64,000 nt of DNA. Origin: a virus. The notes below the pieces were generated by a model. That model did not search any database and was not told the DNA's origin. It saw only the letters and a list, made by a program, of their open reading frames with translations. Position 1 is the first letter of the stretch. Every line of letters starts with the position of its first letter. This document shows positions 9,549 through 60,065 of this stretch, piece after piece. The stretch covers positions 32,001 through 96,000 of IMG/VR virus record IMGVR_UViG_3300028571_000013. One strand, written 5' to 3'. The position numbers and the translations under genes are program-made.

Positions 9549-9579
9549 GTCGAATCGTTGTACAGTAGTGTACGGGTGA

Positions 9580-10270: not shown

Positions 10271-10277
10271 ACCAGCT

Positions 10278-32106: not shown

Positions 32107-32572
32107 TCATATCTTACTACCTCCCAAGCCGACCAGTTTTCTTCCTCGCGGGAGTAACGTTATGCTTGAGTTCCCACCGACGCAGGATGTTGCAACAGCC
32201 GAACATGGTTTGTTCGGCGCTGTTGTTGGAAAAGACCTATATGGCAGCACCTGTACAAATGCGATTTGGTATCCTCCGGGCGGGTTCATGAGTTGGCACA
32301 CGAATAGCAACAACCCCGGACGCAGACTTTACGCGGCATGGAGCGAAACCGGCGACAGCGGTATGAGGTGGTACAGAGACGGAGAGGTTGTTGACGACCC
32401 CGACCAGCCGGGATGGAACGTCAGGATTTTCGAAACGCCTCAGTGGCACATGGTATATGCGAACTGCTGGCGGTTTAGTGTTGGGTGGAAAGTAGATTAG
32501 ATAGGTGTATTATTAGGTATTAGAAAGTCATTATTATGTCATTATCATATAACAATTCAATCTTAGCTCAAA
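31451..32572 (+). repeat. Direct repeat copy A (~1.1 kb, GC-rich)
   Basis: Matches 32689-33810 at offset 1238. One internal synonymous SNP seen (31548 A vs 32786 C), plus a few mismatches in the last ~30 bp. Confidence 0.95.
32162..32500 (+). CDS. Cupin / 2OG-Fe(II)-oxygenase-like small protein (copy 1)
   Basis: WYPPGGFMSWHTN...WHMV...RFSVG double-stranded beta-helix pattern. Confidence 0.55.
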   Translation: MLEFPPTQDVATAEHGLFGAVVGKDLYGSTCTNAIWYPPGGFMSWHTNSNNPGRRLYAAWSETGDSGMRWYRDGEVVDDPDQPGWNVRIFETPQWHMVYANCWRFSVGWKVD

Positions 32573-33344: not shown

Positions 33345-33810
33345 TCATATCTTACTACCTCCCAAGCCGACCAGTTTTCTTCCTCGCGGGAGTAACGTTA
33401 TGCTTGAGTTCCCACCGACGCAGGATGTTGCAACAGCCGAACATGGTTTGTTCGGCGCTGTTGTTGGAAAAGACCTATATGGCAGCACCTGTACAAATGC
33501 GATTTGGTATCCTCCGGGCGGGTTCATGAGTTGGCACACGAATAGCAACAACCCCGGACGCAGACTTTACGCGGCATGGAGCGAAACCGGCGACAGCGGT
33601 ATGAGGTGGTACAGAGACGGAGAGGTTGTTGACGACCCCGACCAGCCGGGATGGAACGTCAGGATTTTCGAAACGCCTCAGTGGCACATGGTATATGCGA
33701 ACTGCTGGCGGTTTAGTGTTGGGTGGAAAGTAGATTAGATAGGTGTATTATTAGGTATTAGAAAGTCATTATTATGTCACTATCATATAACAACTCAATA
33801 CTAGCTCAAA
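32689..33810 (+). repeat. Direct repeat copy B
   Basis: See copy A. Confidence 0.95.
33400..33738 (+). CDS. Cupin / 2OG-Fe(II)-oxygenase-like small protein (copy 2)
   Basis: Identical to 32162-32500. Confidence 0.55.
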   Translation: MLEFPPTQDVATAEHGLFGAVVGKDLYGSTCTNAIWYPPGGFMSWHTNSNNPGRRLYAAWSETGDSGMRWYRDGEVVDDPDQPGWNVRIFETPQWHMVYANCWRFSVGWKVD

Positions 33811-42503: not shown

Positions 42504-45500
42504 ATGGCAGCAGCATTTAATTTGACAGCACAGATTAATTTGAGAGGACCAACCAACACAAAATCAATTGCTTCGTCTATTAGAAAGCAATTATCTAATA
42601 TCAAGGTTAAGATAGATCTTGATATGAAAGGATCTTCAGCCAAAAGTATAGCTCTGGTTAATAAAGGTTTACAAAGCATAGCTACAAATGCATCTAAAGC
42701 TAATTCTAATATTAATCAACTTAATGCTAGCATTCAACAATTAGCGACTAGTCTTGGTGGACTTGCAGCTTCTAGTCCACAAGCATTAGCGGCCACAGGT
42801 AAAGCGGCAAGTTCAGCTGGTAAGTCTGTTTCTACTGCAACTTCTCAGATGCAAGAATTCGGTAAACAGTCTGGACTAGCTATTCGTAGATTTGCTGCCT
42901 TCAGTACAGTTACTGGCGTAATTTATAGTTTAACTAATGCTATTACTAGTGCTTTTAAAGAATTTATTACATTTGATAAAGAACTGGTCAGATTATCTCA
43001 AGTTACTGGATCGAGCATGACTGCTTTATCCGATATTACAAAAGAAATAACCAGACTATCAACTACTCTGGGCGTTACATCTTCTGACTTATTACAAGTT
43101 TCTGTAACCTTAGCTCAAGCCGGCTTATCTGCACAAGATACTAAAACAGCACTTGAAGCATTGGCTAAATCAGCTTTAGCGCCATCTTTCGACGATTTAA
43201 ATAGTACAGTAGAAGGTAGTATTGCTTTAATGAGGCAGTTTGGTATTAGTTCTGGAGAGCTAGAAGGCGCTCTTGGTAGTATCAATGCTGTTGCTGCTGC
43301 ATTTGCTGTGGAAGCTAGCGATATTATCGTTGCTATACAAAGAACCGGTGGTGTGTTTGCTGCTGCTAGTAATGGTGTTAGTCAGGGTACGGATGCTCTT
43401 AATGAATTCATATCAGTATTTACTAGCGTACGAGCTACTACTCGTGAAAGTGCCGAAACTATCGCTACGGGTTTAAGAACAATATTTACCAGAATACAGA
43501 GAGGAGCAACAATAGAAACTCTCAAAGAATATGGTGTTGTATTAACAGACTTAGAAGGGAAATTCGTTGGACCATATGAGGCTGTTCGCAGATTAAGTGA
43601 GGGTCTTAATGGCCTTGATACTCGTGACTTGAGATTCTCTAAGGTTGTTGAAGAACTTGGTGGATTTAGACAAATTGGTAAGGTTATTCCTCTTATCCAG
43701 CAGTTTGCAACAGCAGAAAATGCCTTATCAATTGCTCAAAAGGGTCAGAGTTCTTTGAGTAAGAATGCTGTAGAAGCTCAAAAATCGTTAGCTATTCAGT
43801 TTGAAAAAACTAGACAAGCCTTCGTTGCCCTCATTAGAGATGTTGGCAATAGTAGTACCTTTAGAACAATTGCAACGATAAGTTTAACTACCGCTAATGC
43901 TTTCGTATCTCTTGCATCAGCACTTAAGCCATTGTTACCAATGTTAACGGCTCTTGCTGCTATTAAGGGAGCATCAATTCTTAGTGAATTTACTTCTGGT
44001 TTTGTAGGAGGTCTTGGTAAAGGCGCTCCTGATGGAGGAGACGACGGAGGTGGTGGTGGCGGTGCAGGGGGTGGAGGCTCTGGCGGCGGTGGTTCGGGCG
44101 GTAAGAGTGGCAAGAGTGGCAAGGGGAAAGGTCCAGCAAGCTCTAAGGTTGTAATGGCTAATACCCATGCTACAGCTGCAAATACTTCACAACTATCTAT
44201 AGTTAATACCACATTAGTAGGAATGATTACTAGTTTAAATAACTTAACTCAGATTATTGATAATGCATTTCCACCATCTGGAGGAACCGGATCTGGTCCG
44301 ACAACAGCTAGTAAGGGTGGCAGAATATTAGGATTTAAACGAGGGGGTAGTGTTCCTGGTTATGGTAGAGGAGATAAAGTATCGGCTCTATTAGAACCAA
44401 AAGAATATGTTATGAGTCGTGATGCTGTTGAGAAATATGGCACGGGTACATTTGATGCCATGAATAGTGGAGGAGCTATTCAGAGATTTAGTGTTGGTGG
44501 AGGTACTGATGCTATATCAACATATAAAGCAAGCTCTATGGGGCTTAATAGAAGTTTAATGCTTGGAACTCCATTAACTAAAGAACAACAAAAAATCAAC
44601 AAAGACTTAAGTAAACAAGCCAAAGATAAATTACCAAAACAATTATATTCTGGTATCGGAGAAAATAGACTCAACATTATTAAAAAACAGGTTGGAGACA
44701 AGCTACAAGAATCAAAAGGTAAAACATTTTCACTGCCTGGATTTTTATCTACCAGTTCAGATAGTTCTATTGCAATGGAGTTTGCTCGCCAAGGACTTTT
44801 GACTATTTTGACCAACCCTAAGAAAAAAGGCATTAATACCAATAAACGAGTGAGCACAGAATATGATCTGGAAAAAGAATTTATATTACCTCAAAATTCT
44901 AAATTTAAAGTCTTAAAAGCAGAACAAAGTCAGTCTGCTGTTCGTCCTGGTAGTTCTTTGAAAAAAGAAAAATCTAATTTAGATGTTCAACAACTAGCTT
45001 CGGGTGGAGCTATACAAAAATTTGGTAAAGGGTCGTCTGGTGGCAAGGGAGTTAAAGCATCTAAGCCTAATAGTCAATCATTAGTTGACCTACCTCCAGA
45101 CAAGGATACGCATTTTACACACCTAGACGCAAGAGTAGAAGCTAAAGATTTCCCCAAAGAATTTCAAAACTATTTAAAGAAAAACAAAAAAACATCAGTC
45201 GTTGATGCATTATATTCTAGTATGGGTTTAGATTTACCAAGAAACTGGAACCTAGACTGGAGCCAGTCACCTAATAGTGCTGGTTCATCTAGTAAATTGC
45301 TATCAGACTATATATCTAAGCCTAGCAATGAGATATTTAAAACATTATTAGGTAATAGAAAATCCTCTTCTGCGGCTGAAAAATATGGTTTTGAAGGTAG
45401 AGAAAAGTCTATAGCTGCTGGCTTTCTGTCCGAGGCACAAGATAATATTAGATCTAATTTGGCATCTTTGATTAAAAGTAATAGTAAGAAATTCTATGAT

Positions 45501-48500
45501 ACTGACAAAGATGATGTCTCCACGACCATGCCTGATCTTTTAGAAAGAAGTATAGGTAAGTCTTTACCTAAATCAAAATCACCAGTGCTTATGGAGGCAT
45601 TAAAAACTAAAATAGCTTATGTAGGCAAGAATAGTAAAGGTAAGGACTATAGAGATAGAATTAATAGGGAAATGAGGAAAGTACTAAACTCAAATAAAAA
45701 ATCTAATGGAGGATTCATACAAAAATTTGCTGATGCTGGAGAAGTTGATATTGATGAAAGCTTATTAAGACCTTATGGACAAGTTGGTGTTTTAGCTAAA
45801 AAGAGTCTTAAGGGTGATGCGGGATTAAGTATAGAAGAGGCCGTTAGGGAGGTTCTAGTTAAACAATTAGCCGGGCTAGGTAATGAAGCTGGTATAGCAG
45901 AACTAACCGCCATTCCTGCAAACCTACGCAGGAAGCTTAGGAAAGACATGATTTCTAAAGGGCAGATAGATTTACTAGGAGCATCTGATGTAATTAATAA
46001 TGCTCTGTCCTCTAAGGGAGTACAAGATGCAGAGTATGCTGCTAAAGTTGAAAAAATGAAAAAGGTTGGTGTTGTTGGATTAGTAGATGGTCAGGGTAAA
46101 TTAGATTATTCTAAAGATTTTGATAATTGGGATATTGGTAATAATCGTACAGTCTACGCTTATGCTAGAGGTTTCAAGTCCCAATATTTTGACGCTGTTA
46201 CTAAAATGCAACAGCAAACAGCATCTGCTAAGGGTCAGTTTGCAGAAAATCTACAATATGCTGATATATTTACTGGTGAACCACTAGCTTTTGATTTTGA
46301 TGAAACTTTAGTTGCTGGAGCAGATATTCTTAATGATAAAGGTAAACCAGATATTCCTAAATATTCTGATAGAACCATTGTGCAAGAAGCTCTAAAGAAG
46401 GGTAGATTAACAAAACTAGGAGCTAAGTTAAAATCTCTTATAGATGCCGACCCAGACTTTATTAAACAAACTAGAATTCTTACTGCTAGACCACAAAATA
46501 CTGAAGATCTTTTGGCACAGACCCTACAGAGTTTTGGACTACCATATAAAGCTGATGATGTTACTGGAGTAAGTCAAGGTCCTGGTACAGATATTGCTGG
46601 TGCCAAAGCGGCTAATTTAAGCAAGACAGAAAAATTAATTGATGATAATCTAGATAATGTTAGGGCTGCTGAAAAATCTGGTAAAAAAGCTTATCAATAT
46701 AGAGAACCAGGATTAGCTCCAGAATATCAAGAATTGATGGGTCAAGGAAATATTGAGGGTGCCGTAGTAGAGGCGGCATTAGCAGAGCTTGGAGCTAGCT
46801 TACCGCCAATCGCCCAACTAGAACAGAATAGAGCCGTAGACTTTGAGAATGGATTAGGCCCAGCTGCTAAATATTTTGGTATCCCAAGCAATATTCCAAC
46901 AGAAGTAAAGAGAACTCTTACCGGTTATGCTTTTGATAGAGCTCGTAAAGAGTTTGGTAGATATTATGATGAGAATCCTAGTAAGTGGTTTGAGGGTGGA
47001 CAAATTCAAGCTTTTGATGAGGGGTCTATGGGAGGCGTTAAGCCAGATAGATCAACTAAGAATAAAAGAAGAGGGGCCTATGGTACTCGTGGCTTTACGC
47101 CACTGTCCCCATCAGAGCACTCCTCATTTGCTGCACAAGCTTATAGAGATGCTGATAGTGATGATAGTGTTGAGTGGTCAGATCATTATGGCATGAAGAT
47201 GCCAAAAGTATTAGCTGATTATTATGATAAACTTAATAAGTGGACTTTTGAATCTGGTGGTGCTGGTATTGCTATTGGTAAGAAATTGGTTAAGCTACCT
47301 GATGATATAGATCCAGAAGCTTTAGAAGCACTTAAACCAGATTTAATTAAACAATATGATGGATGGTATACAGAGGTAGAAGAAGTATTACCATTTGGTA
47401 GACCAACAGAAACAAAGAATCCAGCACTAGCAGCTAAACAAGCTAGAGCATCAGCAGCACTAACGGCAGAAAGTCGTAATACTGCTTATACACAAGCAGA
47501 GGATGCTATAGGTTCATTTAAGAAAACTGGACAATTATCTTTTGATCCATCAATTGATAGTCATATCAAATCATCTTTTCCAAGCTATATTAGTGAATTA
47601 GAGGATGAATTAAAATCAACAAGTGATCCCGATGAAAAAATCTCTATTCAGCGCAAACTATCTAAGGCACAAAAGGCCTGGCCAGATTACCAGGCACTAA
47701 CTAAGGGAACATCAGTACCAAATCAAGGTAGAGTAACAGCGCTATCAGAAACCTTATATACTTTATTAGATCAGTATGGTAGTGGAGATGTTGCCGTATC
47801 CGAACTAGATAATATTCTTAAGGCTATGGGACAGAAACTACCAGTTAAAAAAGCCCATGGAGGAATACTACAAAAATTTAGTATTGGTGGTAAACTTTCA
47901 AGAGGATCGAATGTTCAGAATACAACGCAAGGGTTTGCGGTTGGAGGCGAAACAGAAGCTTTAAGTGACCTTAGAGATTGGACAAACGTTCAACAAGATC
48001 CAAACTTCCAACAAGCTGTTACTGACTTTGAAGGACTCTACGGCAGAAACAACGTCATGAATAAGCCTCAGTTTGATGCTTATGATAAAGATAAGAGTAA
48101 AACCCCCAAAATAGGAATGGACGAAGGATTAAGTGGGGCCTCGTACAAGGTTACTCCGGGAATGATAGAGCAGAAGGGCGCAGAATATCAAGATATTATA
48201 GCTAATAGGGTAGCAGGATATCGAAAAGCAAATAAAGTTCAGCAAGCAGCGATTGAAAAAAATAAGATTAAGTCCCCAGCACAACAAGCTATGGAGGACG
48301 CCCCATTCTTTAAAGACGCTCGTATACAAAAGGCTCTTGAGGATCAAGGAAAGGGGATGAGAGACTACGAACCTCGTCCTAAGCAATATGCTATTGGAGG
48401 AATACTACAAAAATTTGCAGATGGAGGAGCGCCCGGTAAGAAATATTCTTGGAGAGAAAGTAAAGGAGTTATGGATTCCTTTAATTCTAAAAGGACTTGG

Positions 48501-51500: not shown

Positions 51501-54500
51501 CAACTACAAGCAGAACTTCAAGCATTAGATCAATTAAGACGCATAGCAGATAATAGTGAGGCTTTTGCCACTGGAAATAAATCTTATGCTAATAGAATAA
51601 TGAGAAATAGTGATGTTGTTGAAAAAGCATCATTAACTCCAGAAGAAAGAAGAGCCTCTTATGGCCGCAAGGAGAGCGGAGGAAAGCTTAATAGCTTAAA
51701 TATACTACAAGAACAGGAGATGAGAAGCTCTCTTGGTGCTGAAGGTATGGTTGTGAATGATCAACAGAGCGTTCAGGAGTATCTCGATACTCTTGGTGCT
51801 GGTTCTGAAAAACGTAAAAAGGCTGATGCAGCTATAGTTAAAGCTCAAGAACGTTTACGTAAAAGAATATATATAGAAGCTCGCGTAAGACAGGGACAAG
51901 ATAAAGAAGTTGCTCGTAAAGAATATGAAGGGGCTATTGGTAAAGACGGCAAAGTTCGTAATGCTAAATCTGCTGGTAAAGTTAATAACTTAGTAGATCA
52001 AGAACTGGGTAGAGAAAATAGATCCCGAGTATTAGCTGATAGATTAGAGATAATAAATAGAGATGTTAAGAAATTTACTCTGAATATTAGCGATGTAATG
52101 AGTCGTTTGTCTTCTTCTATGGCTAGAATAGTTAGTGAGATTGATGCTAGTGCTACTAGGGCTATGAATATTTCTGGAGAGTTTTCTGGTCAAGGAGCAA
52201 GAGCTAATGAACCAGATGCTCAAAATGTAAGAGTTCTTGAAAATATCACAGCATATACCAGAGACGAACTATCTTCTGTTGTTGATAATGTTACTGCTGG
52301 TCTTGGAGATAACGAGCAAACAAAACAAATAGGAAGCTTTGTTAAAGGTCTACAGGCTATTGAACAAGAACTGCCACTGATTCTTAGAGATACAGAAGGA
52401 GGAAATCTTGAGGCTGGCTCTCGTTCGAATATAGAATCTAGATTGAGCGATATGTTTGCTGGATTAGACATGGCTCCTGGTATTCGTAAAAAATTAGAAG
52501 ATAGTGTTTTGGAGTGGATTGATAGTGGAACATCTATTAATAGAAAGGGCATGTCTGTAGATGATCTTGCTGATAATATTCAAGCATTTAAAGAACTTAA
52601 AGATTCTGGAGAAAAAGCTAGGAAAACTTTAGAGGATTATGCTAGAAAACAACTTGAGGTAAATCGTAAGCTTGGAGCTATGTCGGATTCGTTAGCTGCT
52701 CAATTTGATAAGCTAGCAGATAACTCCATTAAAGTTAAAGATATTAACTTACAGGCCGCACTGCAACTTAAGGAAAAATTTGGACAAACACTCTCTCTAA
52801 GAGAGATGACATCACCATTTGAAGCATCTGTTGGCGGACTAACTGGTGGATTAACTGATCCTGCTACTATTGGTCAAGAAATATCAAAAGCTATTGCAGA
52901 AAAGAGAATTCTAGAAGCTGATCCTTCTAAATCTACTAGCGCTTTGGGTTCTGGAGATATAGCAAAACTCACCTCAAAAATTAATAAGTATACTAAAGCT
53001 CTTGATCTATTGGCAAACAATACAGATAGGGCCTCTGCTGCTCTTAAGAAAATTGATGAACAATCTCAAATTTCTGCTGGTCGTCGTCGTAGTGTGATGG
53101 ACTTCTTTGATATTATAGATAACCCAGAAGCTATGCTGGGTTTTGCTAAAGAGACACAATCATATGGTAGAGTTATGGGTGGTGCTGGTAGTATTGGAGA
53201 TATTAAGGGAGCAAAGTCAACACTACAAAGTTTAGAAGGAACAAAAACGCCAGAAGAATATCAAAGACTACAACAACAATTCTTTGATAACGTAACAAGA
53301 ATACTTGCTAATGCTGGTGGTGATCCTGCTGTTTTTAATCAATTCAAAGATATGTTTGCTGGTGATTTTGGTAGAACTGAAGATAATCCACAAATCAAAC
53401 CATATATTGATGCATTTAATCAAGCAGCCACAGTACAAACGCAAGCAGTAAGAACACAGTCTGATCTTATTAGACAGGGTGGAGAACTATTATCCAGAGC
53501 ATTGTCCACATCTGCTGATGATTTTACCAATAAGATGCAAACTGCTATTACTAATATTGTTAATGAGTTAAATGCTGTGGCTACCAGATTAGGCGTAGGG
53601 GGCGGCGCTGTTCCAGCCCCACCACATGCTAAGGGCGGCTTAATAAATTATTATGCTATGGGTTCTATGGTCGATTTTGCCCCTAAGGGAACAGATACTG
53701 TTCCAGCAATGTTAACGCCAGGAGAATTCGTCGTTAACAGAGCTGCAACATCAAGGAATCTTCCACTACTACAAAATATTAATAGTGGTAAATATAGTAG
53801 TGGTGGAAGTGTTAAATATTTAGCTAAAGGAGGTTTATTAGACCGTAGTGTACGCACTAGGTTCCCAATGGTACCAGACACAGAGTGGGATAAATTAGCT
53901 GGCACATCTGATCATATACCATTGAGTAGTTTTCCACAAAGCGATTTGTTAAAATATGTAGATTTTAGATCAGCGTCTAAAGATAATGTATTAAATAAAT
54001 CAGAACTAGATAGTTATAATTCGGCAGTACAACAACATCATGACAGATACCTCTCAGGATCTGCTCAACAAAAATATAAGGTGTTGTCAGACAATAATCT
54101 TTTGATAGATAATTTACAAAAAGAAAAGAAACAATCTTCTGGATTTTTAGGTTTTGGAGGGGACAAAAATAAAACTAAACAAACTAGTCAAGCTTTAAAC
54201 AAAGCAATAGCATTTAGAGATAAAGAACTTAAAGCTGGTTCAGGTTTAGATTGGTACAAAACTTATGAAGCTGCTCATGCTATACAGAATAATAAACGAA
54301 TCACTGGCGGGCGTAACATATTAGAAGAGAATTATTTCGGTGGAGATAGAAATTTTCCATTTACTCCAGAATTTATGAAGGTGGATAATGCTTTTAGAAA
54401 CGCTAAATTAGGTCTTGAGCCAGCTGATTTTGAAAGTTTAATGTATGGCTTGGCTAGTAAAGCAATTCCCGGAGTATTGGGTGCTGTTGGTGGTGGTTTA

Positions 54501-57500
54501 GGTGCCATTGCTGGTGGATCCATCGGAACTTTGGGTGGTTTGATTACTGGCCCAGGAGCAATCGTTACAGGAACTGCTGGAGCATTATCTTTAGGCTTTA
54601 CTGGAGGTATGCTTGGAGATCAAATAGGACAAAATATAAATTCATATATATGGGATAAATATATTCCAGAATCTATGAAGAATAGAGTTATGGAGAAGAT
54701 GAAGGCTAGTCCAGAATCATATTCAGGAGGCCAGTGGATAGGCTTTGGTGCTGAGTTGATGGGAGGTGCTGCTGCTGATGATATGATAAGAAAGGGTATG
54801 ACATCAGCTTTTGGTAAAGCCACCTCAGTAAGCGCAAAAATGTTACAGAATGGCTCTATCACATCCAATGCTATTAAGCTTGCTCCTAATAGTATTCCTA
54901 TCGCTAATGCTGATGAAATTACTAATAGAAGTTTAGCATTATTTAAAGGTGGGGCTGAGCAAACTGTTCAAAAATCGAAGAGAGTGGTTGGTGGCAGTGG
55001 AAAGGTAGCAGTCCCAGAAATGCCAGCACCCAAATCAGAAGCTCCAGCTGGTGGACGAGCAACAGCAACAGTATCTCCTCGTAATTTGAAAGCTATTCAA
55101 GAACTCTTACAAAATTCTGGACTTAAGTACAACAATGTTGATAATTTATTAGATGACTTGGTTCGTAATCCTTCTGGTAAGGGGGTTTTTGAGATTCTTG
55201 GTAAGCCACCACAAACTGGTTCTGGAGTTCTAAAGCTTCAGAGATTATTACACCCAGACACTGCTGCAACATATTTACCAGATATTTCAGCAGATATACT
55301 TAATACGGGAAGTAAGAAATTTCAAAGAATCTTTAATATAGCTCAAAATAAAGATATTTTGAATAGATATTCATCTTTAATAGATGATGGATATTCTCCA
55401 AATAATATCGTTGATGCATTTAAGGGTAACGATCCTCCATATTTTATTAGAAGTCAGTTGGGACAAAAACCAGGCGCTCCAAAGTCAAGAGCCAAGGCTC
55501 CGGAAGCAAGTACAGGAACAGCTACTCCCAAACCTGGATCGACAACGCCACCTCAGCCAAAAACAGATGTTCCACCAAGAGGAAAAGCTCCAGAAAGTTC
55601 AACATCTGCTACTCCAAAACCAACAGATATGTCGGCACCACCAAAACCAACTGATATGTCAGCACCACCAAAACCATCCCGTGGTAAAGCTGGTGACGGC
55701 AGCACTGGAACTAAACCAAAGCCAACACCCCCAAAGGCCCCATCTGGAGCACCATGGTCCGATACTGTTAAGACCAAGCTTGCTCAATTATGGGAAAATA
55801 GTAAAAATACTGTTGGATCAGCTAAAAATTTCTGGGATAAATTACCATCTTGGGCTAGAAAGGGTATAAGTTGGGGTAGTACAGGATTAGGTTTGTATGG
55901 AGGCAAAGCTATATGGGATTGGGCTACCGGAAATTCATCAGTCACCATTCCAGATGCTACCCCTTCTGGAACTCCTACTGGCGGACCACTACCTCCATCT
56001 ACATTTGGCGACGACCCATTAGAACCTATTAAATATGCTGTTGAAGAAGCTAAACGTAAATATGAATCGACACAAGCTGGTAGAATGGATGCTTTCAAAA
56101 CACAAGATGGTCAATATAGTTTTGGACAGGTTGTGAGTGCTGCTGCTAATCTTGGTCTTAAAGATCCAATGGGTATCACGGACTTCAGAGCACGATATGC
56201 TAAAATACCAAAATTTGAACTTGGAGATGGCTCTGAGGCTGGACAACTATTAACACAAAAAGAAAGACAAGATAAACAAGACGAGCTAGATAGTCTAAAC
56301 AATCAAATAGGCGATATTGCTCAATATGATGTCGATAATGATCCAAATATTAAGGTTCTACTTGGTAGAAGAAATGAACTACGCAAGCAGTTGGAGAGTG
56401 ACTATAGGGGACAGCTTAATCTTGGAGTGCCTACAGGAGATAAGCCTCCTAAGTTTACGTTATCAAGTCCAAAAGTTCCCAGATCCAAAGAAGACTTTGG
56501 GTTAACAGACGATATGATTGATCCAGTTTCGGGTAAGCCACTACCGGGCTTAGTCAACGCTGCTAAAGATAGTCCAATAATTAAAGAGTTGTCAAATCTA
56601 ACTTCACATCAAGCAACCCTTAATAGAAAGGATGACTCAGGAAGCGCCACACCTGGACAAACTAATGGATCATTATTATCAAAATATAAATTAGATTTTG
56701 AAGATTTAGAGAAAGAATCAGCAAACGCTAATATGCGTAATGGACAAGATCTTCTTAATAGATTTAATAAATTGAAGAAGTCTTATGTTAAAGATTTTGG
56801 ACCAGTCAATGATCTTGACGATCAAGATATAGCATTTGGTATGGATGCTCAAGGAAAAGCAAAAGCACAGGGAGAGGTTATTAGGAAACATTTGGGCGGC
56901 AAATTAGGAGATAGCTCTTTTGTTGGAGCTCCATTTAAAGGTGGTCAATCTAATGGAGCAACACCACAAGAAAAAGCAAAAGCTCGTAAAGCTATCGATG
57001 AAATGAAGACTAAGTATGGAGTATCAACAGATGATGAATTAAAAAACAAACTAGAGGGTGCCTCTGTTAAAGAACAAAAAATTATCAATGCTGATAAAGG
57101 ATGGACAAGATTTGATAATAATAAGAAGACATATCATAGTGAATTAGAAAAATATTGGATGATAAGGGCAAGATGGGAAAATAGAGAAAAATTAAAGGCT
57201 GATCCAACTTTAATGATGACAGGTTCTCCAAATTTAAGCTCTGAAGATGTAACAAAACTTAATACAGAAATACAGGATTTGGATGGTCAGATACAGACTG
57301 CTGCTCCAGGTAAGCAAGATGTCGATGACCTAGTTCGTCGTAGACAAGAAAAGCTTGATCAACTACATCAAGGTCAAGGTATTAAGTTTGAATCAGTTCC
57401 ACCTATGGAATATTTGTTATTTAATACTCCACATGATTCATCCCATCTTAATCCATTTAATACATTTGATAATAATTCATATGCTTATGGTAAACCTGGA

Positions 57501-60065
57501 CAAAATATTAATAATGCTAAGACTCCATTTGTTAATGATACCAATTCTATTATTATTGAATTATTAACAGCATATGGTAAAGCATATGGTATTGAAGCAG
57601 ATATTCCAACTAATAATAATTCATTTAATGAGTGGATTAAAGGTATCAACCCTGAGACTGCAACTAGTCTACCATCAGTATCTACCAAAAAGAGTTGGAC
57701 ATTAGACAAGCTTCAAAATCATTATGCTTTAGGAGAGACTGCTGCTGATACAGAGGGTAATTTTGCAGCAAAGTTTGGTTTGTGGGGTGTCGATGGTACA
57801 GAAAACTCTTTCAATAATAATTTTACAGAGCAATACAAAGAGAAATTTTTACAAAAAGCACGAGACTATCTGGTAAGCAAATCTCAGAAAACTGCTAATG
57901 AACAATATCGTTTACCAGAAAATACAGATAATTATCTGAAAGCTATAGATGCGTTTGCTTCATATACTGGTGGAATGGATAGGGATATTTACGGAAAAGT
58001 TAATCCGGGTTTTGGTACGCTAAATATAGATAAAGGCATTGAAGGAGCGGACGATCAAGAGAAGCTAAAGAAATTACGTAGTAAAATTAGTAGAGCATAT
58101 GTGAAGTATAAGAGAGAAAATATAGATAAGGCTTTTGGTGGCATAACACCAACTAATATTGATAGATGGAAGAGTGTTGATAATAGATATGGCTTCCCAG
58201 GTAGTCCAGAAGAGGTTAGGGATACTGTATTAGCAGATGTTAATACTTTAGATAGAATTAATAATTTAGATAATTATATGTTAAGTAATAAGGTATCACC
58301 AGCAGATATTCGTTCGTTTACTGGTGGGGCTAATTTATTGATGGCTAATAATGGTCCTATAGGAGATGCTGTTGCTGGATCTTTCTCAGATGTTGATGGA
58401 AATAAGGTAAAGGGAGATATTAAATTAGTAGATTTCTTGGTTAACGCACTAGACTTTTCAGCTCCTAGTCTTGTTAATGATAGACAAGCTAGGATTGATA
58501 CGATTATAGGCATGGAGCTTGCTTCAAAAGTAAAAAATCCAAATCCAAGATATGCGCAGGCAGAAATTGATCTTGATACAGATCTAGAAAATATTAAAGA
58601 TTCTTATAAGTTGTGGGACTCTCTCCAATCATATAGCATTGATCCAACAACTAAAAAATCAACAGTCGATTATATTAATCCAGATACATTGGCTCTGGAT
58701 ACTTTTACCGGAGACAAGGATTCGGTAAATATTGCTGGCCAAAATATAGAGGCAAACTCTGGTTTCTTTAGGAGTTATGCTGGTGCCTTCACAGATGATG
58801 CTCCAGAATATAATCGATTAAAGCAAACTATTTCATATCTTGGTTCATTTGCTGGTGCAGGGTTGAAGTCTGCTGATCAGATGACAACTATGCCTTCTCC
58901 ATTTGATAATGATGCTTTTATCATGACTAAAAAAGAAAAGCAAATGCAGAGCGTGGCAACAAAACCAATTGGGGCGGCGGGTGCGGGAACTGCTCCACCA
59001 GCGGGAACCTCTCCTCCAGCGGGAACCTCTCCTCCAGCGGGAACCTCTCCTCCAGCGGGAACCTCTCCTCCAGCGGGAGCCGCGCCAGCATTAACTGGTG
59101 ATGTTAAGACCCAAATTCAAACAATGCGTGAATCAGTAATAGGCAGTACTGGTAAAGCTAATAGTATTTTTGCTGATAATGCTCTACAAGATAGCGAAGC
59201 TAATGAATATAGTCCTATGTTAGATAATTTAGGAAGTTTATTATTTTCTAATATATCATCGTTTAGGGGTGATTCAGAGGCAGAAGCTAAGGCATGGTGG
59301 GCATATAAAAAACATTATCGTACAATAAAAAGATTTGGAGATCCTTTTGATCCTAAAGTGGTAGCTTCTAAGCCAAATATGGAAAGTATTAATACAGAAA
59401 GGACTCTGAGAGGTAAACTAAATGAAATGATTCAACAGCCCAAGTATTTATCTAGTGGTGGTCCAGCACTAGTTAATTATCAACCAAAGGGAACTGACAC
59501 CGTACCAGCCATGTTAACCCCCGGCGAATTCGTTATTAATAAATCATCAGCATCTAGACATATGCCATTATTACAAGCTATTAATAGTGGTGGTATTTCT
59601 TATGCTAGTTCTGGTGGTGTAATCAATCCTGTATATAAGGCTAGGGCCGGTGGAGTAGGAAATATGATGGGTATGGTTCAAGGCTTTGGAAAAGCTATGG
59701 GTTTTGATATGGGTGGAGCCAGTGCAGTGTTTGATAGCTTTATCAAGTCATTCAATACCGAAACCAATAATTTTGGATCTTTAATCAATAATCTTGCTAA
59801 GGTATTTCCTGCTCTTAATGGTCCAGTTAATGCTTTTGGTGGTCATGTTGATAAATTAGTAAAAGCTCTTAATGAACTAAAATCGATAGAAATTAAGGGA
59901 CCAAATATTCCTAATACTATTAATGTTAATAGTGAAACTATAAGAGTAGAATTAGTAGGACCAGAAAATACTAACTATAAATTAAGCCCAGATGATCAGA
60001 AAAAGATCTCAGACTCTGTAGCACTACAACTAAAAACATTAATTACAATGGGTAGAATTGCATAA
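42504..60065 (+). CDS. Giant (5853 aa) tape-measure protein with embedded enzymatic domains
   Basis: N-terminal TP901-type TMP domain (FDKELVRLSQVTG...LAQAGLS...IATGLRTIFTRI). GTDTVPAMLTPGEFV(V/I)N motifs. Internal ART-like, HAD-like and J-like segments. Confidence 0.85.
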   Translation: MAAAFNLTAQINLRGPTNTKSIASSIRKQLSNIKVKIDLDMKGSSAKSIALVNKGLQSIATNASKANSNINQLNASIQQLATSLGGLAASSPQALAATGKAASSAGKSVSTATSQMQEFGKQSGLAIRRFAAFSTVTGVIYSLTNAITSAFKEFITFDKELVRLSQVTGSSMTALSDITKEITRLSTTLGVTSSDLLQVSVTLAQAGLSAQDTKTALEALAKSALAPSFDDLNSTVEGSIALMRQFGISSGELEGALGSINAVAAAFAVEASDIIVAIQRTGGVFAAASNGVSQGTDALNEFISVFTSVRATTRESAETIATGLRTIFTRIQRGATIETLKEYGVVLTDLEGKFVGPYEAVRRLSEGLNGLDTRDLRFSKVVEELGGFRQIGKVIPLIQQFATAENALSIAQKGQSSLSKNAVEAQKSLAIQFEKTRQAFVALIRDVGNSSTFRTIATISLTTANAFVSLASALKPLLPMLTALAAIKGASILSEFTSGFVGGLGKGAPDGGDDGGGGGGAGGGGSGGGGSGGKSGKSGKGKGPASSKVVMANTHATAANTSQLSIVNTTLVGMITSLNNLTQIIDNAFPPSGGTGSGPTTASKGGRILGFKRGGSVPGYGRGDKVSALLEPKEYVMSRDAVEKYGTGTFDAMNSGGAIQRFSVGGGTDAISTYKASSMGLNRSLMLGTPLTKEQQKINKDLSKQAKDKLPKQLYSGIGENRLNIIKKQVGDKLQESKGKTFSLPGFLSTSSDSSIAMEFARQGLLTILTNPKKKGINTNKRVSTEYDLEKEFILPQNSKFKVLKAEQSQSAVRPGSSLKKEKSNLDVQQLASGGAIQKFGKGSSGGKGVKASKPNSQSLVDLPPDKDTHFTHLDARVEAKDFPKEFQNYLKKNKKTSVVDALYSSMGLDLPRNWNLDWSQSPNSAGSSSKLLSDYISKPSNEIFKTLLGNRKSSSAAEKYGFEGREKSIAAGFLSEAQDNIRSNLASLIKSNSKKFYDTDKDDVSTTMPDLLERSIGKSLPKSKSPVLMEALKTKIAYVGKNSKGKDYRDRINREMRKVLNSNKKSNGGFIQKFADAGEVDIDESLLRPYGQVGVLAKKSLKGDAGLSIEEAVREVLVKQLAGLGNEAGIAELTAIPANLRRKLRKDMISKGQIDLLGASDVINNALSSKGVQDAEYAAKVEKMKKVGVVGLVDGQGKLDYSKDFDNWDIGNNRTVYAYARGFKSQYFDAVTKMQQQTASAKGQFAENLQYADIFTGEPLAFDFDETLVAGADILNDKGKPDIPKYSDRTIVQEALKKGRLTKLGAKLKSLIDADPDFIKQTRILTARPQNTEDLLAQTLQSFGLPYKADDVTGVSQGPGTDIAGAKAANLSKTEKLIDDNLDNVRAAEKSGKKAYQYREPGLAPEYQELMGQGNIEGAVVEAALAELGASLPPIAQLEQNRAVDFENGLGPAAKYFGIPSNIPTEVKRTLTGYAFDRARKEFGRYYDENPSKWFEGGQIQAFDEGSMGGVKPDRSTKNKRRGAYGTRGFTPLSPSEHSSFAAQAYRDADSDDSVEWSDHYGMKMPKVLADYYDKLNKWTFESGGAGIAIGKKLVKLPDDIDPEALEALKPDLIKQYDGWYTEVEEVLPFGRPTETKNPALAAKQARASAALTAESRNTAYTQAEDAIGSFKKTGQLSFDPSIDSHIKSSFPSYISELEDELKSTSDPDEKISIQRKLSKAQKAWPDYQALTKGTSVPNQGRVTALSETLYTLLDQYGSGDVAVSELDNILKAMGQKLPVKKAHGGILQKFSIGGKLSRGSNVQNTTQGFAVGGETEALSDLRDWTNVQQDPNFQQAVTDFEGLYGRNNVMNKPQFDAYDKDKSKTPKIGMDEGLSGASYKVTPGMIEQKGAEYQDIIANRVAGYRKANKVQQAAIEKNKIKSPAQQAMEDAPFFKDARIQKALEDQGKGMRDYEPRPKQYAIGGILQKFADGGAPGKKYSWRESKGVMDSFNSKRTWYDVFEHNPEGGAKVVHSGSFDEVLKFLQDNRSKDTEQKSSEDPMKKLAGGGRIKLYHGSNTGVDDATLKSFKEKGALSDVAQGYGQGAGFYVYSGKEKAKEQAQMRVKGGLGSFAVVSGDTAGKPMVLTFEEALDPATWDLDYELNKGSVVKWLAQNFDKIKDKVAPGEKLTGIKDVVSPDSSKGIMSHGIRVQSDTGSIKTIYSGIDSDLREGELVGQIMNRLQSNDPEMVHGFENQFFKSPSLASGEWDNLALKYVGSSPLKPVDIETFAAGGSVQQFARGGVPALVSNGEAYIPPSTAKSIGYGTLNRMNQADKNGMGRFAVGGGVGVFKGPGSGTSDSIRTNLPVGSFILREKATKALGFNRGGSVGVRKFATGGGVGADRMDYLNRIADKLGITVQQYERSIREKIYKSAKGSAESKTSAQSDVGDVLIKNLENIGDASVEQATRESLTELISKIDPNIDATKLGSTIDDVITGMKNGLSVDELKQTSSDLKDILEKDISIVSELADAHKKYESELGFLTGKMKVRGIDVRAQKSLKEGKFGALESGNLRQAQRNLESPTGQRIDKFGEALKTQNIPGMKLLSSAFPKVADRLTTLGDKIGGVTGIIGSGSALLSTQMPGFLKSIDAFAGTVSEASPAVAGLQGALRDAGSFGLSGAIVGKQAFGAKGAAVGGAVGLAGGAVSGFIKESTSKEVELAMKGVSAASSDLDKTLSQLSGAKTFGERAELQDRAAKNYEALNTALEKSTSTIQQNKIWTSLASGLEGFLSGLTMVIGFMAAAQMGGPTLGPGSGKGSKGKKGGGGKGKKAAGGPIGFANGGLVPVKLADGEGVFTPPLPASTGEMKKMNNADRNGYKPSFSGAMSIVPGGGSGKVDNFETMLPEGSYVVRADAMKAMQEQEMATSNKGGSIGAHQSKISITGSTPKLSSGGEVQHFASGGQIQRLASGGGTRGYAVGGIVNLIMRGLKMGLGSALGAAVMNGLLSALGQFFDTSAQDVQLQAELQALDQLRRIADNSEAFATGNKSYANRIMRNSDVVEKASLTPEERRASYGRKESGGKLNSLNILQEQEMRSSLGAEGMVVNDQQSVQEYLDTLGAGSEKRKKADAAIVKAQERLRKRIYIEARVRQGQDKEVARKEYEGAIGKDGKVRNAKSAGKVNNLVDQELGRENRSRVLADRLEIINRDVKKFTLNISDVMSRLSSSMARIVSEIDASATRAMNISGEFSGQGARANEPDAQNVRVLENITAYTRDELSSVVDNVTAGLGDNEQTKQIGSFVKGLQAIEQELPLILRDTEGGNLEAGSRSNIESRLSDMFAGLDMAPGIRKKLEDSVLEWIDSGTSINRKGMSVDDLADNIQAFKELKDSGEKARKTLEDYARKQLEVNRKLGAMSDSLAAQFDKLADNSIKVKDINLQAALQLKEKFGQTLSLREMTSPFEASVGGLTGGLTDPATIGQEISKAIAEKRILEADPSKSTSALGSGDIAKLTSKINKYTKALDLLANNTDRASAALKKIDEQSQISAGRRRSVMDFFDIIDNPEAMLGFAKETQSYGRVMGGAGSIGDIKGAKSTLQSLEGTKTPEEYQRLQQQFFDNVTRILANAGGDPAVFNQFKDMFAGDFGRTEDNPQIKPYIDAFNQAATVQTQAVRTQSDLIRQGGELLSRALSTSADDFTNKMQTAITNIVNELNAVATRLGVGGGAVPAPPHAKGGLINYYAMGSMVDFAPKGTDTVPAMLTPGEFVVNRAATSRNLPLLQNINSGKYSSGGSVKYLAKGGLLDRSVRTRFPMVPDTEWDKLAGTSDHIPLSSFPQSDLLKYVDFRSASKDNVLNKSELDSYNSAVQQHHDRYLSGSAQQKYKVLSDNNLLIDNLQKEKKQSSGFLGFGGDKNKTKQTSQALNKAIAFRDKELKAGSGLDWYKTYEAAHAIQNNKRITGGRNILEENYFGGDRNFPFTPEFMKVDNAFRNAKLGLEPADFESLMYGLASKAIPGVLGAVGGGLGAIAGGSIGTLGGLITGPGAIVTGTAGALSLGFTGGMLGDQIGQNINSYIWDKYIPESMKNRVMEKMKASPESYSGGQWIGFGAELMGGAAADDMIRKGMTSAFGKATSVSAKMLQNGSITSNAIKLAPNSIPIANADEITNRSLALFKGGAEQTVQKSKRVVGGSGKVAVPEMPAPKSEAPAGGRATATVSPRNLKAIQELLQNSGLKYNNVDNLLDDLVRNPSGKGVFEILGKPPQTGSGVLKLQRLLHPDTAATYLPDISADILNTGSKKFQRIFNIAQNKDILNRYSSLIDDGYSPNNIVDAFKGNDPPYFIRSQLGQKPGAPKSRAKAPEASTGTATPKPGSTTPPQPKTDVPPRGKAPESSTSATPKPTDMSAPPKPTDMSAPPKPSRGKAGDGSTGTKPKPTPPKAPSGAPWSDTVKTKLAQLWENSKNTVGSAKNFWDKLPSWARKGISWGSTGLGLYGGKAIWDWATGNSSVTIPDATPSGTPTGGPLPPSTFGDDPLEPIKYAVEEAKRKYESTQAGRMDAFKTQDGQYSFGQVVSAAANLGLKDPMGITDFRARYAKIPKFELGDGSEAGQLLTQKERQDKQDELDSLNNQIGDIAQYDVDNDPNIKVLLGRRNELRKQLESDYRGQLNLGVPTGDKPPKFTLSSPKVPRSKEDFGLTDDMIDPVSGKPLPGLVNAAKDSPIIKELSNLTSHQATLNRKDDSGSATPGQTNGSLLSKYKLDFEDLEKESANANMRNGQDLLNRFNKLKKSYVKDFGPVNDLDDQDIAFGMDAQGKAKAQGEVIRKHLGGKLGDSSFVGAPFKGGQSNGATPQEKAKARKAIDEMKTKYGVSTDDELKNKLEGASVKEQKIINADKGWTRFDNNKKTYHSELEKYWMIRARWENREKLKADPTLMMTGSPNLSSEDVTKLNTEIQDLDGQIQTAAPGKQDVDDLVRRRQEKLDQLHQGQGIKFESVPPMEYLLFNTPHDSSHLNPFNTFDNNSYAYGKPGQNINNAKTPFVNDTNSIIIELLTAYGKAYGIEADIPTNNNSFNEWIKGINPETATSLPSVSTKKSWTLDKLQNHYALGETAADTEGNFAAKFGLWGVDGTENSFNNNFTEQYKEKFLQKARDYLVSKSQKTANEQYRLPENTDNYLKAIDAFASYTGGMDRDIYGKVNPGFGTLNIDKGIEGADDQEKLKKLRSKISRAYVKYKRENIDKAFGGITPTNIDRWKSVDNRYGFPGSPEEVRDTVLADVNTLDRINNLDNYMLSNKVSPADIRSFTGGANLLMANNGPIGDAVAGSFSDVDGNKVKGDIKLVDFLVNALDFSAPSLVNDRQARIDTIIGMELASKVKNPNPRYAQAEIDLDTDLENIKDSYKLWDSLQSYSIDPTTKKSTVDYINPDTLALDTFTGDKDSVNIAGQNIEANSGFFRSYAGAFTDDAPEYNRLKQTISYLGSFAGAGLKSADQMTTMPSPFDNDAFIMTKKEKQMQSVATKPIGAAGAGTAPPAGTSPPAGTSPPAGTSPPAGTSPPAGAAPALTGDVKTQIQTMRESVIGSTGKANSIFADNALQDSEANEYSPMLDNLGSLLFSNISSFRGDSEAEAKAWWAYKKHYRTIKRFGDPFDPKVVASKPNMESINTERTLRGKLNEMIQQPKYLSSGGPALVNYQPKGTDTVPAMLTPGEFVINKSSASRHMPLLQAINSGGISYASSGGVINPVYKARAGGVGNMMGMVQGFGKAMGFDMGGASAVFDSFIKSFNTETNNFGSLINNLAKVFPALNGPVNAFGGHVDKLVKALNELKSIEIKGPNIPNTINVNSETIRVELVGPENTNYKLSPDDQKKISDSVALQLKTLITMGRIA
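58983..59078 (+). repeat. 18-bp coding tandem repeat (AGTSPP)n within TMP
   Basis: gcgggaacctctcctcca x4 plus one variant. Confidence 0.9.

Follow-up and report, generated by a model that had tools for sequence, protein, structure and literature searches.

A giant tape measure protein of an uncultured lake phage with predicted enzyme cassettes exchanged at nine-residue Gly-Gly joints

The single open frame at 42504..60065 (plus strand, as are all features given below) of the window, meaning the whole 64,000-nucleotide stretch of DNA analysed here, encodes the tape measure protein (TMP) of an uncultured lake phage: 5,853 residues in which at least three predicted enzyme domains and other segments alternate with copies of a short Gly-Gly unit. 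Comparison with related sequences gives good support to these units being recombination joints, where relatives have acquired, dropped or swapped domains, and on balance we favour a reading of the protein as a ruler backbone interrupted by exchangeable cargo cassettes that would be delivered to the host. The backbone would consist of the N-terminal TMP domain, the hydrophobic stretches, a conserved block at residues 3150–3700 and the C-terminal module. The cargo would comprise an ExE-type ADP-ribosyltransferase (ART), a Pnkp-like HAD phosphatase accompanied by two conserved blocks, a domain with a predicted H-Y-E ART fold, and other segments. The window belongs to a virus record of 125 kb, in which a same-strand late operon and fibre-like ORFs lie upstream of the TMP. 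The six ORFs directly upstream and the two downstream gave no usable family match, and near-identical DNA was not found among GenBank phages.

The N-terminal region (residues 1–500; 42504..44003) is that of a TP901-type TMP, as a first-pass annotation made from the sequence had proposed. It carries a PhageMin_Tail/tape_meas_TP901 domain, matched by Pfam PF10145 at residues 180–382 (E 1.2e-23; 84.5 bits, cutoff 33.2) and by NCBIfam TIGR01760 at residues 141–451 (E 1.3e-22; 80.3 bits, cutoff 28.8), and the protein also matches eight PHROG TMP families. Hydrophobic stretches lie at residues 257–280 and 456–495, and the region was found in 109–114 of 120 giant relatives. The conserved block at residues 3150–3700 (51951..53603) aligned in 55–96 of the 120; large parts of residues 2400–3700 are helical or without assignment. 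A lineage-specific region of 1,840 residues (3800–5640; 53901..59423), common to at most 14 of the 120, holds Pro-rich tracts plus five PPAGTS repeats and has no family match in Pfam or NCBIfam. The protein ends in the seventh copy of a recurrent module (residues 5649–5705) and a conserved C-terminus (together 59448..60062), recognised by PHROG, motif and conservation evidence. Besides the N-terminus, the first ART cassette and the module, searches of the TMP with Pfam, NCBIfam and PHROGs returned nothing; phmmer with residues 600–5853 against PDB sequences gave nothing at E ≤ 1, and ESM Atlas look-ups with residues 4480–5560 and with cassette B yielded no usable match.

The joint is a 9-residue unit, [LFY]-[ANS]-x-G-G-x-[IV]-Q-[KR], occurring mostly as 1.5 to 4 tandem units, and each cassette is flanked by it on both sides. 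More than 20 recurrent xGG motifs, often in doublets, had been reported at first reading; all 11 quoted examples were located, and the protein contains 22 [FYLHW][ASG]xGG motifs (2.8 expected from shuffles), 15 [FYLH]AxGG (0.9 +/- 1.0 in 300 shuffles) and 9 GGxxQx[FL] (0.4 expected). An exact nine-residue spacing between successive motifs occurs 8 times (shuffle mean 0.03), and the doublets are therefore tandem 9-residue units. Over 300 joints of the family, the consensus has G, G and Q at 100% (these define the pattern), I/V at 89%, K/R at 73% and F at 87%, followed by G at 89% and a further G at 76%. In two AF2 models the joints coincide with low-pLDDT stretches that separate confident domains (residues 1–21, 659–690 and 935–961 of model 1; 1–25, 236–246 and 474–493 of model 2).

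The second recurrent element, G(T/S)D(T/S)VPA(M/L)L(T/E)PGE(F/Y)V, had been described as present in several copies, and we count two strict ones (residues ~3731 and ~5665, 67% identical over 30 residues) and five degenerate ones identified by eye (611–660, 2279–2321, 2322–2373, 2818–2865 and 2866–2916). The pairs at 2279–2373 and 2818–2916 match by BLAST (E 1e-8 to 1e-10). Copy 1 with the first joint (FKRGG...SGGAIQRFSVGG) occupies residues 611–666 (44334..44501) and aligned in about 95 of the 120 relatives; a joint with copies 2 and 3 spans residues 2270–2380 (49311..49643), on the basis of motif listing, BLAST and conservation. Motifs and BLAST place copies 4 and 5 (residues 2818–2916) together with four tandem 9-mer units (LSSGGEVQH FASGGQIQR LASGGGTRG YAVGG, residues 2928–2959) at 50955..51380, and copy 6, the strict GTDTVPAMLTPGEFV with flanking joints, lies at residues 3708–3777 (53625..53834; PHROG, motif and BLAST evidence).

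The relatives come from one length-restricted search (3,219–10,243 residues) with residues 560–2400 as query, in which 125 giant TMPs passed E 1e-3; conservation counts within this region are biased upward because the relatives were found with it. Each of the 125 covers just 3–67% of the query, and 66 block orders occur among 120 relatives. The four closest (P0002–P0005) lack whole cassettes, with three cassette-sized gaps that each start and end in the joint. Of 1,590 homology-block ends, which stem from related sequences and hence are non-independent, 62% fall within 10 residues of a joint, against a background of 8.5%. Identities are discordant as well, with cassettes 83–89% identical between backbones that are 57–59% identical: P0007, P0009 and P0010 share 58% with the N-terminus, 83–84% with cassette E and 86–87% with cassette G, and P0041 and P0044 share 57–58% with the N-terminus and 88–89% with the first ART cassette, while P0005 is 88% identical at the N-terminus but 35% in cassette B. 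Contigs of a different lake study (run X7) join 44478 to 45013, skipping the first ART cassette, and one connects 47857 with 48395 through 22 shared letters, skipping cassette E; in runs X5–X7, parts of the stretch without contig cover do not count as absence. The first-pass annotation had taken the motifs for domain-swapping joints, and had named plain helical segments throughout and orthologue indels away from the motifs as findings that would speak against its reading; the segments are not all plain helices, the indels coincide with the motifs, and the proposal of recombination joints is borne out. The joint units, about 21–27 nt where conserved in DNA, serve as the recombination joints, with cassettes lost between two units and transferred among diverged backbones. 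Two further contig joins, 45192 to 47317 (side 20) and 49393 to 49497, were weak and set aside. The join of 48618 to 49356 is maybe a replacement, not a deletion.

Cassette ART1 (residues 667–830; 44502..44993) is assigned as an ExE-type ADP-ribosyltransferase by PF03496 (ADPrib_exo_Tox; residues 718–810, E 2.8e-7; 30.5 bits, cutoff 23.4). FLSTS at residue 749 and EKE at residue 790 supply the S-T-S and E-x-E motifs, and S94, S96, E135 and E137 (alignment numbering) do not vary among the copies aligned (10 of 10); the middle residue of STS is T, S or V. The NAD-binding Arg is replaced: ART1 reads L-Y-S-G where 8za7_B (Lmo0066 protein), the solved chain aligned to it, has LYRG, and all 10 copies carry Ser, Thr or Ala in this column. 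The ART-like domain proposed between the joints stands, though without its usual Arg, and because of this replacement ART1 may be inactive or unusual. Weak PDB profile matches were to the Lmo0066 protein (8za7_B), Vis and component a of the C. perfringens binary enterotoxin. ART1 is present in 32 of 120 relatives and absent from P0002, P0004 and P0005; a word-based search aimed at shorter proteins related to ART1 plus B yielded just 1.

The HAD phosphatase domain (residues 1257–1401; 46272..46706), likewise suggested at first reading, combines a predicted HAD fold with the conserved motifs I–IV: DFDET (residues 1264–1268), LTAR, K and IDD. The consensus over 44 rows retains DFDETL, RxLTARPQS and EKLIDDN, and in alignment A1 K29 and D42 are invariant and D41 almost so. 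The domain was modelled at a pLDDT of about 86–96 by block. The top three VIA rows are Pnkp-type (5uj0_B, Z 11.3, rmsd 3.2, 123 aligned; 1ltq_A, 10.8; 4xrp_A, 10.6) and the next row has Z 9.7, a lead over generic HADs of about 1.6 Z units only. A Rossmannoid HAD fold is indicated by 49 of the 50 VIA matches listed for model positions 381–565, the exception being 6xod_B (PEX4-PEX22 complex), and the Foldseek PDB and BFVD lists consist of HAD or Pnk proteins, with phage Pnk proteins leading the viral structure list. On this modelling, the domain appears closest to polynucleotide kinase 3′-phosphatase domains of the T4 Pnkp type. T4 polynucleotide kinase/3′-phosphatase (5uj0, 1ltq) and Pnkp1 (4xrp), the best structural matches, share the DxDxT nucleophile motif; the TMP domain differs from them in lacking a kinase domain, in its companion blocks C1 and C3, and in an identity of 15–16%.

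Block C1 (residues 1079–1256; 45738..46271), modelled as confident helices and a three-stranded sheet (pLDDT about 77–93 by block), is conserved together with the HAD core and present in 53 of 120 relatives. Block C3 (residues 1410–1500; 46731..47003) is the most conserved block of the family, with invariant columns and presence in 103 of 120. Its conserved motifs are NIEG..E, NRAxDF, GLG and PTEVKRT, and the stretch NRAxDF ... TEVKRT forms a D...ExK-like (PD-(D/E)xK-like) motif at residues ~1440–1475; a possible PD-(D/E)xK nuclease had been suggested at first reading. The AF2 model of C3 shows one clear strand plus helices, and a PDB profile search with it gave no relevant match; the fold-match lists for model 1 are filled by the HAD domain and bear on it alone. 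For residues 840–1800 the alignment folded was A5 (44 rows). The first mixed alignment, A4 (68 rows), placed diverged ART fragments on the HAD region and was not folded; 24 of its rows were dropped, namely the 18 rows of ART1, three diverged rows of D, a single row of B, and the two rows L032 and L041.

Cassette G (residues 2049–2273; 48648..49322) has a predicted H-Y-E ADP-ribosyltransferase fold, modelled with pLDDT mostly 74–93. ART folds make up most of the 50 VIA matches listed for model positions 240–480, all at Z ≤ 8.1 (Foldseek E ≥ 0.03), among them the Tpt1-type 9ld3_A (Z 8.1), TreX (7.0), PARP13 (7.0) and PARP16 (6.9); these matches span Z 5–8.1, and according to the tool's guidance values below 8 may reflect a common arrangement. 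Across 108 sequences of the G family, H2056 is conserved in 99%, Y2090 in 81%, and D2141 and E2143 in 100%, and in our reading H2056, Y2090 and E2143 would be the catalytic triad. The predicted fold (Z ≤ 8.1) and the conserved H/Y/E residues together support the second ART-like domain that had been suggested. The family consists mostly of free-standing proteins of 190–400 residues (about 107 free-standing; 141 representative clusters). Neither cassette G nor any of 10 free-standing relatives has a Pfam family, and among cassette G and nine free-standing relatives a weak PHROG (function not annotated) was matched by 1 of the 10 proteins scanned. The joint is missing on both sides of the free-standing homologues P0128, P0129, P0131 and P0132, so it belongs to the TMP context and not to the domain. 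The neighbouring cassette F (residues 1976–2045; 48429..48638) is a small alpha/beta domain whose model weakly resembles T7 Gp1.2 and ribosome hibernation factors (VIA 7u65_G, Z 6.3, rmsd 3.2, 75 aligned; Foldseek 7u66_G, prob 0.87).

Cassette B (residues 845–1045; 45036..45638) is an alpha/beta segment (AF2 pLDDT 61–96 by block) found in 14 of 120 relatives and without a Pfam, PDB-sequence or Atlas match. Cassette D (residues 1545–1785; 47136..47858), also in 14 of 120, was modelled as long helices, and cassette E (residues 1816–1960; 47949..48383), in 5 of 120 and absent from P0002–P0005, as low-confidence helices. A perfect 21-nt direct repeat encoding GGILQKF flanks E, which has a GC3 of 0.35 against 0.21 for the whole gene. 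When viral contigs were scanned for these cassettes, B gained 3 loci, D 4 and E 0, most of which had been in the set before. Discrete globular segments had been claimed between the joints, but not all of them look globular or enzyme-like: D and E were modelled as helical and could be ruler. This, and the helical or unassigned character of large parts of residues 2400–3700, would suit a TMP with no function beyond fixing the length of a very long tail, its inserted domains being decayed remnants or passengers without activity. A plain ruler of this size would give, at 1.5 Angstrom per residue, a tail of about 0.9 micrometre. The missing canonical Arg of ART1 is in line with such decay, and phages of the P23-45 type combine extremely long tails with TMPs of 5,002 residues (PMC10770324). 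We nevertheless judge this reading very unlikely: catalytic motifs are maintained (HAD I–IV; STS and ExE of ART1 in 10 of 10 copies; H, D and E of the G family at 99–100%), and the cassettes remain 83–89% identical while moving between backbones, pointing to selection that acts on the cassettes themselves.

Our preferred reading is of exchangeable cargo, and as domains are swapped among relatives exactly at the joints, enzymes made beforehand probably enter the host with the tail. Since TMPs leave the tail ahead of the DNA, we infer, as did the first-pass annotation with its proposal of injected host-modifying enzymes, that the cassettes would arrive in the envelope or cytoplasm of the host when it is infected and would work at that place, with NAD-dependent modification of host factors and 3′-phosphate removal from nucleic-acid ends or nucleotides as candidate roles. 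The flexible joints may permit the domains to thread the tube one by one. Against cargo counts that folded domains of 18–25 kDa in three copies have no obvious fit in the lumen of a tail tube. A precedent is gp96 of P23-45 (with P74-26, G20c and TSP4), a giant TMP of 5,002 residues whose fused virion RNA polymerase is active and is delivered with the tail, and whose relatives occur with and without the RNAP domain (PMC10770324). It differs in having one enzyme, a two-barrel RNAP near the N-terminus, and the available parts of that paper describe no cassette array or repeated joint.

Judged by motifs and models, the TMP appears to have the multi-domain make-up of a polyvalent-type protein, with delivery again presumed. 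The polyvalent proteins of phages and conjugative elements (Iyer, Burroughs, Anand, de Souza, Aravind 2017; PMC5512222) combine shuffled, unrelated effector domains, including ARTs, in one polypeptide and are thought to enter with the DNA; in the text of that paper accessible to us, "tape measure" and "tape-measure" have 0 occurrences. In the parts seen, it stresses a zincin-like peptidase for processing (frequent, not universal), whereas the TMP has no HExxH/HxxEH motif, carries its domains between a fixed 9-mer joint and is itself a tail protein of the tape measure kind. The MuF-fused ADP-ribosyltransferase toxins of actinobacteriophages similarly place a VIP2-type ART on a virion protein, predicted to be in the particle, but there the head protein MuF is the carrier and has only one toxin domain, at its C-terminus (PMC7302621). 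No description of a TMP that carries arrayed ART or HAD cassettes came up in a literature search mostly outside subscription journals.

The first-pass annotation had also proposed the motifs as protease cleavage sites, for which the support is by analogy. Cutting in a T5-like manner may occur at some joints, and a tentative alternative is that of an injected polyprotein, in which the joints (or joint plus module) would be proteolytic sites and the enzymes would be released at tail maturation or after ejection. The analogy is with T5 pb2, a TMP with a hydrophobic stretch and an enzyme part that is cut during tail assembly, after R1127, splitting the enzyme domain from the backbone (PMC10038345). 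AEGG follows this cut directly and GEHGTEVVTP comes 15 residues on, an A-x-G-G and a GE..V.P stretch that resemble FAxGG and the PGEFV module; T5 pb2 is also cysteine-free, and the C-terminus of our TMP with module copy 7 is a candidate counterpart of its pb2C fragment. The predicted flexibility of the joints in the AF2 models is consistent with cutting, as is lambda gpH, which is cut in its glycine-rich C-terminal region, although the accessible text states that site and protease are unknown (PMC12617516). T5 pb2, however, provides one mapped site, where R rather than F/Y/L precedes the A and the Q-[KR]-F half is absent. It has 1,219 residues with one C-terminal muralytic domain, no ART and no HAD, and is without 9-mer tandem units (0 [FYL..]xxGG motifs by pattern count). 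HExxH and HxxEH have 0 matches each in the TMP, and no peptidase family was found in it or in the flanking ORFs scanned. P23-45 gp96 was detected as a virion protein by antibody, and "proteoly" does not occur in the portion of PMC10770324 available. A combination in which the Gly-Gly unit is doubly used, as DNA crossover point and as a cleavage site of the T5 pb2 kind that releases host-takeover or anti-defence enzymes ahead of the DNA, is doubtful. It would make the TMP a modular "effector rack" with integron-like evolution but within one gene, and its cocktail would be two NAD-using transferases and an end-healing phosphatase.

The place of action also bears on the cargo reading. Cysteine is absent from all 5,853 residues of the TMP and nearly so from its relatives (44 in 619,777 residues across 120), compared with 92 in 28,199 residues of the free-standing G family, which fits a protein obliged to travel unfolded or outside the cytoplasm. 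The absence suits an oxidising compartment, and known TMP-borne enzymes are mostly periplasm-acting wall hydrolases, to judge from the available parts of PMC12617516 and PMC10038345. The cassettes might then not be cytoplasmic effectors: they could work inside the cell that makes the phage, on freshly synthesised TMP, or be confined to the envelope or periplasm, where envelope components would be their targets as the tail penetrates. This we regard as unlikely: all solved relatives listed for the NAD-dependent ARTs and the Pnkp-like phosphatase have cytoplasmic substrates, and Pfam finds no peptidoglycan-hydrolase family in the TMP.

If its cassettes are delivered as the cargo reading proposes, TMPs would be a second major route for pre-made enzymes at the first moment of infection, next to polyvalent proteins and the internal proteins packaged in heads. 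With 125 giant TMPs at E 1e-3 the family is large, the linker is found across it, and the joints provide a simple, testable rule for cargo exchange. The result bears on how and why TMPs get cut, on the travel of globular domains in or through the tail tube, and on whether the tail length of metagenomic phages can be inferred from that of their TMPs. The module of copy 6 is also present in TMPs of cultured phages; the 3,404-residue TMP of Nodularia phage vB_NpeS-2AV2 has the module in common with ours, but not the joint array.

The source virus record is 125,189 bp long, with a rated completeness of 89%, and the window covers its bases 32001–96000. Its tape measure protein (TMP) is encoded at 42504–60065 on the plus strand, as a single uninterrupted frame of 5,853 aa. 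The first 500 residues form a standard TMP N-terminus, which matches PF10145 (aa 180–382, E = 1.2e-23), TIGR01760 (aa 141–451, E = 1.3e-22), and eight PHROG tape-measure families; hydrophobic stretches lie at aa 257–280 and aa 456–495. The gene follows a terminase-like ORF and fibre-like ORFs in a late block that runs on the same strand, and family scans returned no match for the ORFs immediately flanking it. No match was obtained for aa 3800–5640 in Pfam, in NCBIfam or in an Atlas look-up of part of this segment. Beyond the N-terminus, the TMP carries a modular, recombining cargo region that holds enzyme-type domains.

This region is punctuated by short xGG motifs, and every example quoted in the first-pass annotation was found in the protein. 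Compared with 300 shuffles, [FYLH]AxGG was observed 15 times (0.9 expected), [FYLHW][ASG]xGG 22 times (2.8 expected), and GGxxQx[FL] nine times (0.4 expected). The motif “doublets” described earlier are real and are explained by a 9-residue repeating unit: consecutive motifs are spaced by exactly 9 residues eight times in the TMP against a shuffle mean of 0.03, the same spacing is by far the commonest short one in 120 giant TMP relatives (P0002–P0121; 289 times), and aa 2928–2959 is a tandem run of four units. The consensus of this joint over 300 family copies is [LFY]-[ANS]-x-G-G-x-[IV]-Q-[KR]-F-x-x-G-G. Two AlphaFold2 models were built from alignments of related loci and proteins, model 1 for aa 840–1800 (44 rows, mean pLDDT 76.8) and model 2 for aa 1800–2400 (22 rows, mean pLDDT 62.1), and in both the joints fall in low-confidence stretches separating confident domains. 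Several copies of a second element, the G(T/S)D(T/S)VPAMLTPGEFV module, had also been proposed, and we count two strict copies plus five degenerate ones that were identified by eye, with two pairs supported by BLAST. Judged by sequence, the module is a general TMP element and not peculiar to this protein, because tblastn also places it in TMPs of cultured phages (Nodularia siphophages, Clavibacter CN1A, Mycobacterium TM4, Pseudanabaena Pan1, and an EBPR siphovirus). The cysteine-free, 3,404-aa TMP of the cultured Nodularia siphophage vB_NpeS-2AV2 (NC_048637, 8983–19197; locus L076) has a GTDTVPA-type module and lacks the 9-mer joint array.

A length-restricted search recovered 125 giant TMPs, each covering just 3–67% of aa 560–2400, and mapping them on the query revealed a conserved backbone interspersed with segments present in few relatives. 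Among the 120 relatives, the cassettes between joints occur 32 (ART1), 14 (B), 14 (D), 5 (E), 6 (F), and 33 (G) times, counts within aa 560–2400 that carry a bias from the way these relatives were gathered, and 66 distinct block orders were found. The four closest relatives (P0002–P0005) are 76–99% identical over the shared parts and are set apart by three clean gaps: aa 662–839 (ART1) and aa 2038–2270 (G) are each absent from three of the four, and aa 1786–1964 (E) from all four. Both the ART1 gap (SGGAIQ[RK]F) and the E gap (GGILQKF) begin in one 9-mer unit and end at the equivalent point of the next, and the units flanking E form a perfect direct repeat of 21 nt; for G, the left end of the gap lies upstream of the left joint and the right end is at FAAGG. 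Over the whole family, 62% of 1,590 homology-block ends (from non-independent blocks) are no more than 10 aa away from a joint, as against 8.5% of positions.

Identity comparison revealed cassettes far more similar than the backbones carrying them: E is 83–84% and G 86–87% identical between TMPs whose N-termini share 58%, and ART1 is 88–89% identical where the N-termini share 57–58%. One relative has an N-terminus 88% identical and a B cassette only 35% identical. E (window 47949–48383) has a GC3 of 0.35 versus 0.21 for the whole TMP gene, the closest copies of this cassette occur in TMPs with backbones only 58% identical, and by its sequence it looks like a recent import. In contigs from a lake-water run of another study, position 44478 is joined to 45013, and 47857 to 48395; at the second junction, 22 letters are common to both sides. 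G is flanked by a joint on both sides when TMP-borne, whereas free-standing G proteins have none. Gaps, block ends, identity contrasts, and contig junctions together give good support to the earlier proposal that the xGG motifs act as recombination joints, and the cassette indels seen on comparing orthologues coincide with the motifs. A precomputed Pfam column lists PF28597, which has no match to the 5,853-aa TMP in a local Pfam copy, for P0003, P0004, P0005, P0047, and P0108, and SNase (PF00565), EF-hand, SHD1, and a sigma-70 region 3 domain for other relatives; the family as a whole therefore carries a wider range of cargo than this TMP.

The first of the two ADP-ribosyltransferase (ART)-like domains read from the sequence earlier, ART1 (aa 667–830), scores above the Pfam cutoff for ADPrib_exo_Tox. 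Across 10 aligned copies, both Ser of S-T-S and both Glu of E-x-E are invariant, and the central S-T-S residue is T, S or V; the canonical NAD-binding Arg is absent, every copy having Ser, Thr or Ala at its position, where 8za7_B (Lmo0066 protein), the top match in the PDB, reads LYRG. Two ART1-type cassettes occur inside one related TMP (L060:5630–6385 and L060:7160–7765). The second, G (aa 2049–2273), is a confident domain in model 2 and is supported by its predicted fold and by conserved H/Y/E residues, with modest fold scores (Z ≤ 8.1; Foldseek E ≥ 0.03). Its VIA list consists mostly of ADP-ribosyltransferase folds, with a Tpt1-type entry (Z 8.1) and the Rhs toxin TreX (7.0) followed by PARP13/16/10/15, PltA, Arr, DarT, and diphtheria-type toxins. 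In 108 sequences of the G family, H2056 is conserved at 99%, Y2090 at 81%, and D2141 and E2143 at 100%. An all-against-library HMMER search gave 141 representative clusters for this family; 107 of 136 tallied members (including four free-standing proteins found beforehand) are free-standing proteins of 190–400 aa and 13 exceed 1,000 aa, and none of the 10 proteins scanned matched a Pfam model.

Support for the HAD-like segment that had been suggested comes from VIA-align, Foldseek, and motifs I–IV, which are conserved in the relatives' alignments. The domain (aa 1257–1401) is confident in model 1 and is most similar in VIA-align to the T4 Pnkp 3′-phosphatase (5uj0_B, Z 11.3, rmsd 3.2, 123 aligned), followed by 1ltq_A (Z 10.8) and Pnkp1 (4xrp_A, Z 10.6); generic HAD enzymes rank below these Pnkp entries by a small margin (Z ≤ 9.7). 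The Foldseek PDB list contains exclusively HAD enzymes (best E 2.5e-3), and HAD and polynucleotide kinase/phosphatase proteins head the list from the viral library. Two family-specific blocks accompany the core: C1 (aa 1079–1256), helices plus a sheet with high pLDDT in model 1, and C3 (aa 1410–1500), the most conserved block, found in 103 of 120 relatives, a count biased upward as these were gathered with the aa 560–2400 query. The NRAxDF…TEVKRT pattern of C3 could be read as PD-(D/E)xK; the fold lists for model 1 were taken up by the HAD domain, and a PDB profile search with C3 gave no relevant match.

The broader claim of discrete globular segments does not extend to every segment: D is modelled as long helices (model 1) and E as low-confidence helices (model 2). 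Several helical segments may, on these models, act as a ruler. B is an alpha/beta segment in model 1 with no match in Pfam, PDB sequences or the Atlas, and F (window 48429–48638) is predicted in model 2 as a small alpha/beta domain. F weakly resembles ribosome hibernation factors and T7 Gp1.2, the inhibitor of the host dGTPase (VIA Z about 6), a likeness that may reflect merely a common small fold.

Because a TMP is expelled from the tail before the DNA, the cargo would arrive in the host at infection, and two published cases make such delivery reasonable by analogy. The 5,002-aa TMP of P23-45, gp96, carries a fused RNA polymerase; virions contain this enzyme, and it transcribes the first genes (PMC10770324). 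In T5 pb2, cleavage after R1127 separates a muralytic domain from the backbone (PMC10038345). The T5 record has R at position 1127 and AEGG immediately after it, with GEHGTEVVTP 15 residues further on, surroundings that resemble the joint-plus-module of our TMP. This likeness, the sole support for cutting at the joints, makes a thin case that they may be cleaved; for lambda, the TMP cut site and protease are stated to be unknown (PMC12617516). Along with gp96 and pb2, the closest published systems are MuF-ART fusions and the polyvalent proteins described by Iyer et al. (PMC5512222), a paper whose text nowhere mentions tape measures. The literature searched contained no description of a TMP in which ART and HAD cassettes are arrayed between copies of a fixed joint.

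The 5,853-aa TMP contains no cysteine, and the 120 giant relatives have 44 in 619,777 residues, with 99 of them lacking any; free-standing G proteins have 92 in 28,199 residues. Such near-absence fits a protein kept unfolded or working outside the cytoplasm, although it is only suggestive. Five tandem 18-nt repeats coding PPAGTS (window 58965–59086) lie in the lineage-specific part of the TMP, and a second Pro-rich tract contains a 27-nt repeat (window 55605–55658). Beside the fibre-like genes, two ORFs of equal length (window 32054–32500 and 33292–33738; 148 aa each) lie 1,238 nt apart. Window 1–12000, probably the early region, has higher G+C (0.41–0.45 vs. 0.30–0.40), negative GC skew, and mostly short, minus-strand ORFs.
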